Notes: generated by a model not told the origin, from the sequence alone. Counted from the stretch's first letter, positions 4,500 through 5,024 are shown. The stretch: DNA of 9,588 nucleotides from a virus (IMGVR_UViG_2778261639_000016), one strand, 5' to 3'. Program-made: numbers and translations.

Positions 4500-5024
4500 T
4501 TATTGTTTAACCCATAATAATTCATTGACATTGAATCCCAACTTTTGAGCGGTTCGCACATAGTCTGCTTTTACTTTATCTGGAATAGTTGGGGTCCTTG
4601 CCAGAATCCATAGGTATTCTCTGTTCGGACCACTGACAAGAGCATACTTATACTCATCATCCAGTTTGATTACATTATAGCCACCATAGAAGGGGCCAAA
4701 AAACGAAACCTTCAACGCTGCAGTTTTAGTATCTCCAGTAAAGTATGCTTTACCTTCGCTCTCGCTCCATTTATTTTTCGTTGGATCGTATCCACGGTTA
4801 AGTACACGAATCCCTCCGTCGTTCCGTTTTCCATAAGTAGCGCTGACCTGTTCCAGACCACGTTCGAACCGGTTCTCGAGGCGAGCTATTTCATACCATT
4901 TTCCGAGGTAGCGGTTGGCGTCAAAATTTGTAATCGGCTGCACACCTTTAGGTGGTGTCGGGGCCTTACATGCTATAAGAGTGAAAGAGAGTGCAATGCC
5001 AGTCAACACAGGCCATAACTTCAT
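4500..5024 (-). CDS. blc: Outer-membrane lipocalin lipoprotein (Blc-like)
   Basis: 174 aa; lipobox LIAC with Cys19 and Lys at +2 (outer-membrane sorting); lipocalin SCR1 motif GKWYEIARL; strong similarity along its length to recalled E. coli Blc (NFDANRYLG, FERGLE, GKAYFTG, LKVSFFGPFYGGYNVI, YLWILARTP). Confidence 0.9.
   Translation of the reverse strand: MKLWPVLTGIALSFTLIACKAPTPPKGVQPITNFDANRYLGKWYEIARLENRFERGLEQVSATYGKRNDGGIRVLNRGYDPTKNKWSESEGKAYFTGDTKTAALKVSFFGPFYGGYNVIKLDDEYKYALVSGPNREYLWILARTPTIPDKVKADYVRTAQKLGFNVNELLWVKQ

Follow-up and report, generated by a model that had tools for sequence, protein, structure and literature searches.

Why does a prophage of Escherichia coli carry an outer-membrane lipocalin of its own, oriented against the late genes that surround it? 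The question is raised by a gene, here called blc', in a viral DNA of 9,588 nucleotides (IMGVR_UViG_2778261639_000016), which was analyzed at its full length and is referred to as the window. It is nearly certain that blc' is an intact Blc-family cargo gene of a prophage. It is also probable that it acts as a lysogenic-conversion (moron) gene, encoding a working outer-membrane lipocalin of the Blc type with a role in envelope-lipid handling or envelope stress. The gene and its signal peptide are located as follows.

4500-5024, minus strand: blc' coding sequence for a Blc-type lipocalin lipoprotein; ATG start, 174 amino acids, identical to WP_000780581.1.

4968-5024, minus strand: signal peptide with the lipobox L-I-A-C (Cys19) and Lys at position +2, a match to the lipoprotein signal pattern.

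The protein is a full-length member of the Blc family. Its reading frame is preceded by a ribosome-binding site (AGGA, 6 nt upstream of the start), and the product is 100% identical to the copy in strain CE10. It matches the Pfam model Lipocalin_2 (PF08212) at 7e-44 over residues 35-174 (profile positions 2-146 of 146) and the NCBIfam model NF007786, 'outer membrane lipoprotein Blc', over its full length (1-174 of 176 positions) with 316.1 bits, the curated cut-off being 267 bits. The Blc entries 3MBT, 1QWD and 2ACO of the Protein Data Bank match at about 1e-68. The alignment with the chromosomal Blc of strain K-12 (b4149) is gapless over 174 amino acids, with 60% identity and 79% positives, and it bears out the original prediction of a Blc paralog. 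The predicted lipobox and lipocalin motif are confirmed as well: the N-terminus MKLWPVLTGIALSFTLIAC followed by Lys satisfies the lipoprotein signal pattern, and the motif residues G41-x-W43 (structurally conserved region, SCR, 1) and R143 (SCR3) are invariant across the family alignment. According to the +2 rule, a lipoprotein without Asp at position +2 goes to the outer membrane. The blc' protein, with Lys and not Asp after Cys19, is predicted to be sorted there.

The gene is also an extra copy, as had been proposed, because chromosomal blc is found in 5425 of the 5426 complete E. coli genomes. The reading that blc' is itself the host gene, and the region not a prophage, has nothing but the common family in its favor; it was ruled out and retains practically no probability. 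The host gene lies between ampC and gdx (sugE) and is 60% identical to blc', whereas an orthologue within E. coli would be expected at about 90% or more. The flanks of blc' are Q and a rudS-like gene, and both the Q and holin genes around it and the 98% identity of the window to the prophage DLP12 contradict a host locus.

The window is a defective lambdoid prophage of the DLP12 type. Positions 1-4326 share 98% identity with DLP12 of E. coli K-12, spanning ybcK to the 3' end of quuD. The genes follow in the order ybcL, ybcM, ybcN, ninE, ybcO, rusA, the Q antiterminator gene, three cargo genes (blc', the rudS-like gene and an AraC/YdeO-like regulator gene), the holin gene essD, a truncated lysozyme gene, Rz/Rz1 and bor/iss. 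Strain CE10 has the same arrangement, adjoining tRNA-Arg and the sfm/fim fimbrial cluster. The frame of the cargo is as follows.

3967-4344, plus strand: Q antiterminator gene (Phage_antitermQ), immediately before the cassette.

4327-7435, no strand: replaceable cargo segment from Q to the holin gene; homology to K-12 DLP12 ends at 4326 and restarts at 7436.

7447-7662, plus strand: holin gene essD, the first late lysis gene after the cassette.

Homology to K-12 is lost six codons short of the end of Q and regained 11 bp ahead of the holin start. In K-12 DLP12 the same slot holds nmpC::IS5, a porin gene that is likewise antisense to the late genes (L172, 6317-9387). DLP12 variants swap one block, which runs from the final six codons of Q through the late promoter/terminator region and the cargo. 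Because the K-12 homology breaks here and K-12 carries nmpC::IS5 in its place, blc' occupies a late-region slot already known for exchangeable cargo. The antisense orientation within the prophage had been described correctly, with Q and the holin gene on the plus strand and blc' on the minus strand. The slot that blc' occupies varies between relatives, as expected of a moron, and the same cassette occurs in viable phages.

This cargo is widespread. The cassette (4345-7446, 3.1 kb) was found in 1156 of the 5426 complete E. coli genomes, with at least 80% of its length matched in 992, and blc' alone in 1135 (about 21%). It is present in 12 sequenced isolated lambdoid phages. The cassette of phage IdasGreatGrand is 99.2% identical to the window; that of the infant-gut 'Lambda_' phages, 1H12 and 2E9 among them, reaches 89.5%, and their annotation names the gene 'Lipocalin Blc'. 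A relative is encoded by 171 viral contigs of IMG/VR. Synteny was compared in the best 80 of these 171, in which blc' is 97-100% identical. Q lies downstream of blc' in all 80, at a distance that is fixed save in one contig with an insertion; the DUF523/DUF1722 (rudS-like) gene begins exactly 192 bp from blc' in all 78 contigs with room for it; and the full set of Q, blc', rudS, araC and holin genes is kept in 73 of the 80. The original prediction held that a lipocalin acting in superinfection exclusion or host interaction would be new. The presence of blc as a moron of lambdoid coliphages has already been published, the gene being listed by Mathieu et al. (2020; PMC6969025). Since it is so listed and is annotated in phages, prophage-borne Blc is already known, although its family carries the label 'unknown function' in PHROGs (phrog_2809). 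Lipocalin cargo has also been reported for Sinorhizobium prophages (PMC12429752).

Among the sequences carrying the gene was a contig of 2113 bp binned as 'Candidatus Nanosynbacter' (L012, JARKOR010000135.1), with a 99% identical blc' and a 100% identical Q. This contig is almost certainly a mis-binned fragment of an E. coli prophage.

Where did the prophage gene come from? Lipocalins from other enterobacteria (Cedecea, Scandinavium, Klebsiella, Lelliottia, Pantoea and others) resemble the blc' protein more closely, at 75-82% identity, than does E. coli Blc at 60%. A scan of one genome per species returned 80 loci, which fell into two groups. Type 1, the arrangement known from E. coli, comprises 29 copies linked to gdx/sugE, of which 10 have ampC beside them as well; their identity to the blc' protein is 55-64%. 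Type 2, represented by Leclercia tamurae, three Enterobacter species and Buttiauxella brennerae, is 79-81% identical and is divergent from a gene for a MerR/MlrA-like regulator. The operon headed by this regulator gene includes a DUF523-DUF1722 protein 71-73% identical to that of the window and sometimes a transthyretin-like gene, to which Buttiauxella adds DUF1365 and cyclopropane fatty acid (CFA) synthase genes. The same MerR-RudS layout is seen in the metagenome contig with the closest lipocalin of all (82%). In Cedecea, Klebsiella and Scandinavium (75-80%), the MerR-headed operon consists instead of SnoaL, short-chain dehydrogenase/reductase (SDR), flavin adenine dinucleotide (FAD) oxidase, DUF1365 and CFA synthase genes, in some cases followed by DUF2878. 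Because several genera (Buttiauxella, Cedecea, Enterobacter and Scandinavium) appear in both groups, type 1 and type 2 are paralogous lineages. The representative genomes of E. coli and E. ruysiae have type 1 only. Judged from these sequence comparisons, blc' descends from the type-2 lineage, which E. coli itself lacks.

The divergent MerR/MlrA-like regulator gene of that lineage is missing from the prophage: neither the window nor a single one of the 80 viral contigs has a MerR-like gene, and rudS directly abuts the spacer; an unrelated AraC/YdeO-like gene (32% GC) stands to the right of the blc'-rudS pair. By its layout, the phage pair corresponds to the type-2 locus minus the regulator gene, and minus the transthyretin-like gene where there is one. 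We found no earlier description of the type-2 lipocalins as a separate group, and no direct description in the literature of a link between LitR/MerR regulators and a lipocalin; a lipocalin was mentioned only for the ChrR cluster of Stenotrophomonas maltophilia. The link of the prophage lipocalin to a MerR-controlled lipocalin/RudS locus is, in a modest sense, a new observation.

The type-2 protein appears to have been kept in working order. In E. coli Blc, 19 residues within 4 A of bound heme line a cavity that also holds vaccenic acid (PMC8177097). Of these residues, 18 are identical in the blc' protein, the sole change being K77R, which at 60% overall identity has a hypergeometric P of about 4e-4. 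Between the window-type allele (that of CE10) and the allele of phage 2E9, which represent two phage clades, blc' shows 20 synonymous and 5 non-synonymous differences (synonymous divergence, dS, 0.19; non-synonymous divergence, dN, 0.012), giving a dN/dS of 0.065. The same comparison gives 0.10 for the rudS-like gene and 0.27 for the AraC-like gene. These values indicate strong purifying selection on blc'. Together with the conserved pocket, they point to a retained lipid-binding role in envelope stress. Residue 84 of the blc' protein, the site of the G84E variant, is Asn. That variant has been reported as disease-linked (PMC7026729).

These same data bear on the suggestion of the original prediction that the protein might mediate superinfection exclusion or another host-interaction phenotype, for instance by masking or inactivating a phage receptor of the outer membrane, in the way that Cor and Llp act on FhuA, and so protecting the lysogen from other phages. 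The gene does encode a predicted outer-membrane lipoprotein of a prophage in the lysogenic orientation, other prophage lipoproteins are generally known to act in this way, and membrane proteins dominate the morons of lambda phages (PMC6969025). However, a PADLOC scan (E <= 0.01) of the three cassette proteins, ybcL, ybcM and the ybcK fragment matched none of them, so there is no basis for a defence-system label, and the only models matched in Pfam and NCBIfam are those of lipocalins. The low dN/dS shows no arms-race diversification, 18 of the 19 pocket residues are kept, and the closest chromosomal relatives, at 75-82% identity, are non-phage lipocalins in stress and lipid gene clusters. As far as these comparisons go, exclusion finds no support and we regard it as very improbable.

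The envelope role that we favor also has some support at the level of expression. The protein WP_000780581.1 was quantified by tandem mass tag proteomics in E. coli CCUG 70745, where it rose 2.0 and 3.0 fold after 15 min of meropenem; it was grouped with Spy, PspC and other envelope lipoproteins, and its label was simply 'Blc' (PMC13459554). Since this protein is identical to the product of blc', the gene is expressed, and the possibility, raised with the original prediction, that it is expressed under no condition is contradicted. This detection (PMC13459554) also argues against the idea that blc' is a neutral passenger, acquired with rudS by illegitimate recombination and of no benefit to host or phage. 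Lambdoid cargo slots do gather varied genes, as the disrupted nmpC in the K-12 slot illustrates, and the 'unknown function' label in PHROGs would suit a passenger. However, the gene is under strong purifying selection across clades about 19% apart at synonymous sites, its reading frame is intact in a decaying prophage, and about 21% of complete E. coli genomes carry it, as do viable phages. Both the blc' and the rudS-like proteins are the same as those of CE10, despite the lysozyme deletion and the AraC-like frameshift in the window. A passenger without benefit is thus improbable.

How would such a gene be expressed among late genes? The parts of the cassette relevant to this are listed here.

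5025-5216, no strand: divergent control region between blc' and the rudS-like gene, 192 bp, 33% GC against 42% for the window.

5056-5062, minus strand: candidate -10 element CATACTT of blc', about 32 nt before the ATG, inferred from its alignment with CTACACTT of the chromosomal type-2 promoters.

5097-5113, minus strand: conserved upstream box CTAATATAGTATGAAAG, invariant columns AATAT..TA.GAA; AATATA(C/G)TA(C/T)GAA.

4443-4476, plus strand: strong intrinsic terminator (9-bp stem followed by a T run) separating Q from the 3' end of blc', in a tR'-type position.

7320-7351, plus strand: second intrinsic terminator, closing the cassette on its right before the holin gene.

The AT-rich divergent region of 192 bp shared with the DUF523/DUF1722 gene had been recognized correctly. 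Its identity between the two phage clades is 89%, and about 105 bp upstream of blc' can be aligned with the chromosomal lipocalin-merR spacer. The CTAATATAGTATGAAAG box is common to the lipocalin-merR intergenic regions of Enterobacter, Leclercia, Buttiauxella, Cedecea, Klebsiella and Scandinavium, and CTACACTT of the chromosomal type-2 copies fits well with the sigma-S type -10 consensus. In a lysogen, blc' and rudS would be transcribed divergently from promoters of their own in this spacer. The terminator at 4443-4476 would halt unmodified transcripts from the late promoter and spare blc' from antisense transcription, and that at 7320-7351 would bar transcription of the cassette from the lysis genes. 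After induction, Q-modified polymerase would pass both terminators and run antisense over blc', shutting it down. Neither inspection by eye nor the scan could place the late promoter PR' in the stretch 4345-4443; the terminator alone is clear. The product of blc' would be lipidated and sorted to the outer membrane, where at the periplasmic leaflet it may bind lysophospholipids, fatty acids or similar hydrophobic molecules. It could thereby add to the handling of lysophospholipids or damaged lipids in stationary-phase, oxidative or envelope stress and so benefit the fitness of the host.

Several points weigh against this reading. The consensus promoter scan gave no minus-strand sigma-70 site at threshold in 5025-5216, and the total of sites was not above that in shuffled sequences; because the scan gave none, our statements on the blc' promoter are drawn wholly from homology. 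The absence of the cognate MerR-like regulator from the phage cassette means that regulation may differ from that of the ancestral locus. The proteomic evidence comes from one strain, peptides shared with chromosomal Blc could add to the signal, and the prophage origin was not recognized by the authors. No phenotype of a phage blc copy was found in the published literature, and proposals for what chromosomal Blc does in the cell diverge, lysophospholipid binding and heme binding being among them (PMC8177097 and PMC7026729).

Two further motifs of the spacer may be mentioned. Of 9 chromosomal type-2 loci compared, 8 have the 9-mer GCACTACAC at the -10 region, about 40 bp before the lipocalin gene; the exception is L015. 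In the cassette, it occurs once, at 5172-5180 on the plus strand, facing rudS, 37-45 nt before its ATG; the blc' counterpart is CATACTT. The position near rudS may reflect promoter reuse or chance. An imperfect palindrome, AAATTG-N21-CAATTT (5132-5164), resembles the published MlrA box; it was dropped as evidence because it is only partly conserved in phage 2E9. Cross-regulation of the cassette by the MlrA of the host is conceivable.

The partners of blc' in the cassette raise the question of whether the lipocalin acts on its own. They are the following genes.

5217-6176, plus strand: DUF523(TudS)-DUF1722 gene for a homolog of RudS-type tRNA 4-thiouridine desulfidases, 319 amino acids; divergent partner of blc'.

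6528-7258, plus strand: AraC/YdeO-like regulator gene, frameshifted by a 1-bp deletion (one T) after 6643.

The AraC/YdeO-like gene is intact (243 amino acids) in CE10, Lambda_2E9 and IdasGreatGrand. The rudS-like protein has the cluster ligands Cys12, Cys44 and Cys110. TudS-DUF1722 fusions have been named RudS and remove 4-thiouridine from tRNA; 'RudS_vir', gp66 of Escherichia phage 1H12, was synthesized and assayed and showed tRNA desulfidation activity, weaker than that of other RudS enzymes (PMC11417400). This gp66 is the 2E9-clade version (from the 89%-identity cassette) of the rudS-like gene in the window. Light-responsive operons controlled by MerR-type LitR regulators are a frequent site of RudS genes, and E. 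coli is without RudS (PMC11417400), so the prophage supplies a tRNA-demodifying enzyme that the host does not have.

It is possible, although rather unlikely in our estimation, that blc' and rudS form a two-gene module, inherited as a pair, that jointly confers tolerance to near-UV, photo-oxidative or oxidative stress. In the division of labor that may tentatively be proposed for such a module, RudS would erase the near-UV chromophore 4-thiouridine from tRNA and the lipocalin would handle damaged membrane lipids. All 6 of the closest non-phage relatives (79-82%; L009, L013-L016 and L019) have RudS (71-73%) in the divergent MerR-headed operon, and other relatives carry the cluster of SDR, FAD oxidase, DUF1365 and CFA synthase genes there. 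In S. maltophilia, a similar cluster of SDR, FAD oxidoreductase, two CFA synthase, hypothetical protein and lipocalin genes is the main target of sigmaE/ChrR; loss of chrR raises expression of its lipocalin 165-fold, and the cluster provides tolerance to menadione (PMC11832516). The frequent place of RudS in light-responsive operons and its absence from E. coli would fit such a module, as would the constant spacing of the two genes in 78 of 78 viral contigs. On the other hand, genes inherited together need not be functionally coupled, the phage has an unrelated AraC-like gene where the sensing regulator would be expected, and RudS_vir was weaker in desulfidation than the other RudS enzymes tested (PMC11417400). 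The RudS and ChrR-cluster links place the ancestral locus in the response to oxidative or photo-oxidative membrane stress; the role of the phage copy is not thereby fixed. That lambdoid phages captured the pair as a portable stress-tolerance unit from a light/oxidative stress locus under MerR/MlrA-like control is a doubtful proposal. If true, E. coli would gain two activities missing from the species, a second type of outer-membrane lipocalin acting on damaged lipids and a tRNA 4-thiouridine eraser, lysogens would better survive sunlight, near-UV and oxidative or envelope stress outside the gut, and the retention of the cassette in about one-fifth of E. coli genomes, even in decayed prophages, would be explained.

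Salmonella LT2 STM1389 presumably lies in Salmonella pathogenicity island 2 (SPI-2) beside 'ORF242' (STM1390). STM1389 is the 'ORF319' that is the RudS of Salmonella (PMC11417400). A rudS-regulator pair may thus also be present in SPI-2, the sizes of ORF319 and ORF242 being near the 319 and 243 amino acids of the cassette.

The remainder of the window shows the decay of the prophage. Compared with CE10, K-12 and the phages, a deletion of 305 bp (window 7662-7919, junction near 7860) has cost the lysozyme gene rrrD its 3' two thirds and rzpD its beginning. Because of this deletion, the prophage should be incapable of host lysis. The deletion is absent from the best-matching complete E. coli genomes listed, all of which are undeleted there. 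The window begins within the DLP12 recombinase gene ybcK, whose 3' part makes up the open reading frame (ORF) at 68-439. The bor/iss-type lipoprotein ORF at 8342-8683 on the minus strand has 113 amino acids when read from an upstream TTG, as against 97 in annotated Iss/BorD; its real start is probably an internal ATG (MKKM...). An Rfam scan of the whole window gave no match.

About one-fifth of complete E. coli genomes hold a second lipocalin on a prophage, a very common and ignored cargo. Since proteomic and genomic studies label both proteins 'Blc', the data on the housekeeping and the prophage proteins are likely to be mixed. The prophage lipocalin represents no new class of mechanism, and our results lend no support to a new phage-exclusion system. 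Rather, its origin from a MerR-linked stress locus offers a testable hypothesis, in which envelope lipids and tRNA would be protected under light, oxidative or envelope stress.

The place of blc' among known systems can be described from several sides. It shares the fold family, the length, the lipobox Cys19 and 18 of 19 pocket residues with E. coli Blc (b4149, P0A901; 1QWD, 2ACO and 3MBT), but the latter belongs to the other paralog lineage and lies in the ampC-blc-gdx locus, not in a prophage cargo slot. Its likeness to the type-2 lipocalins is closer, with 75-82% identity, homologous promoter-proximal DNA and RudS at the locus in the closest relatives. However, the type-2 loci have a MerR-like regulator, transthyretin-like and lipid-modifying genes, whereas the phage cassette has an AraC-like gene and lies in a prophage late region. 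The lipocalin of S. maltophilia (smlt2367; PMC11832516), likened to blc' by gene neighborhood, stands beside CFA synthase, DUF1365, FAD oxidase and SDR genes as do type-2 loci of Klebsiella, Cedecea and Scandinavium and some distant loci; it is controlled by an extracytoplasmic function sigma/anti-sigma pair, in contrast to the MerR-like control of the type-2 loci.

Among phages, the infant-gut lambda phages (Lambda_2E9 and 1H12; PMC6969025) carry the same gene in the same Q-blc-ybgA-regulator-holin layout. Their cassette is about 89% identical to that of the window, and their blc is 95% identical in nucleotides with 5 amino-acid differences; they are viable, whereas the window is a defective DLP12-type prophage with a deletion in its lysozyme gene. 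Cor and Llp are likewise small prophage-encoded outer-membrane lipoproteins, but no sequence relationship to blc' was detected with the Pfam, NCBIfam and PADLOC profiles. Like the classical lambdoid morons bor/iss, lom, nmpC/lc porin and stx, blc' is an accessory gene for an envelope protein in a variable, terminator-flanked slot, and like bor and nmpC it is antisense to the late operon and would be transcribed independently of it. It differs from them in belonging to another protein family, with no known or implied role in serum resistance, adhesion, porin function or toxicity.

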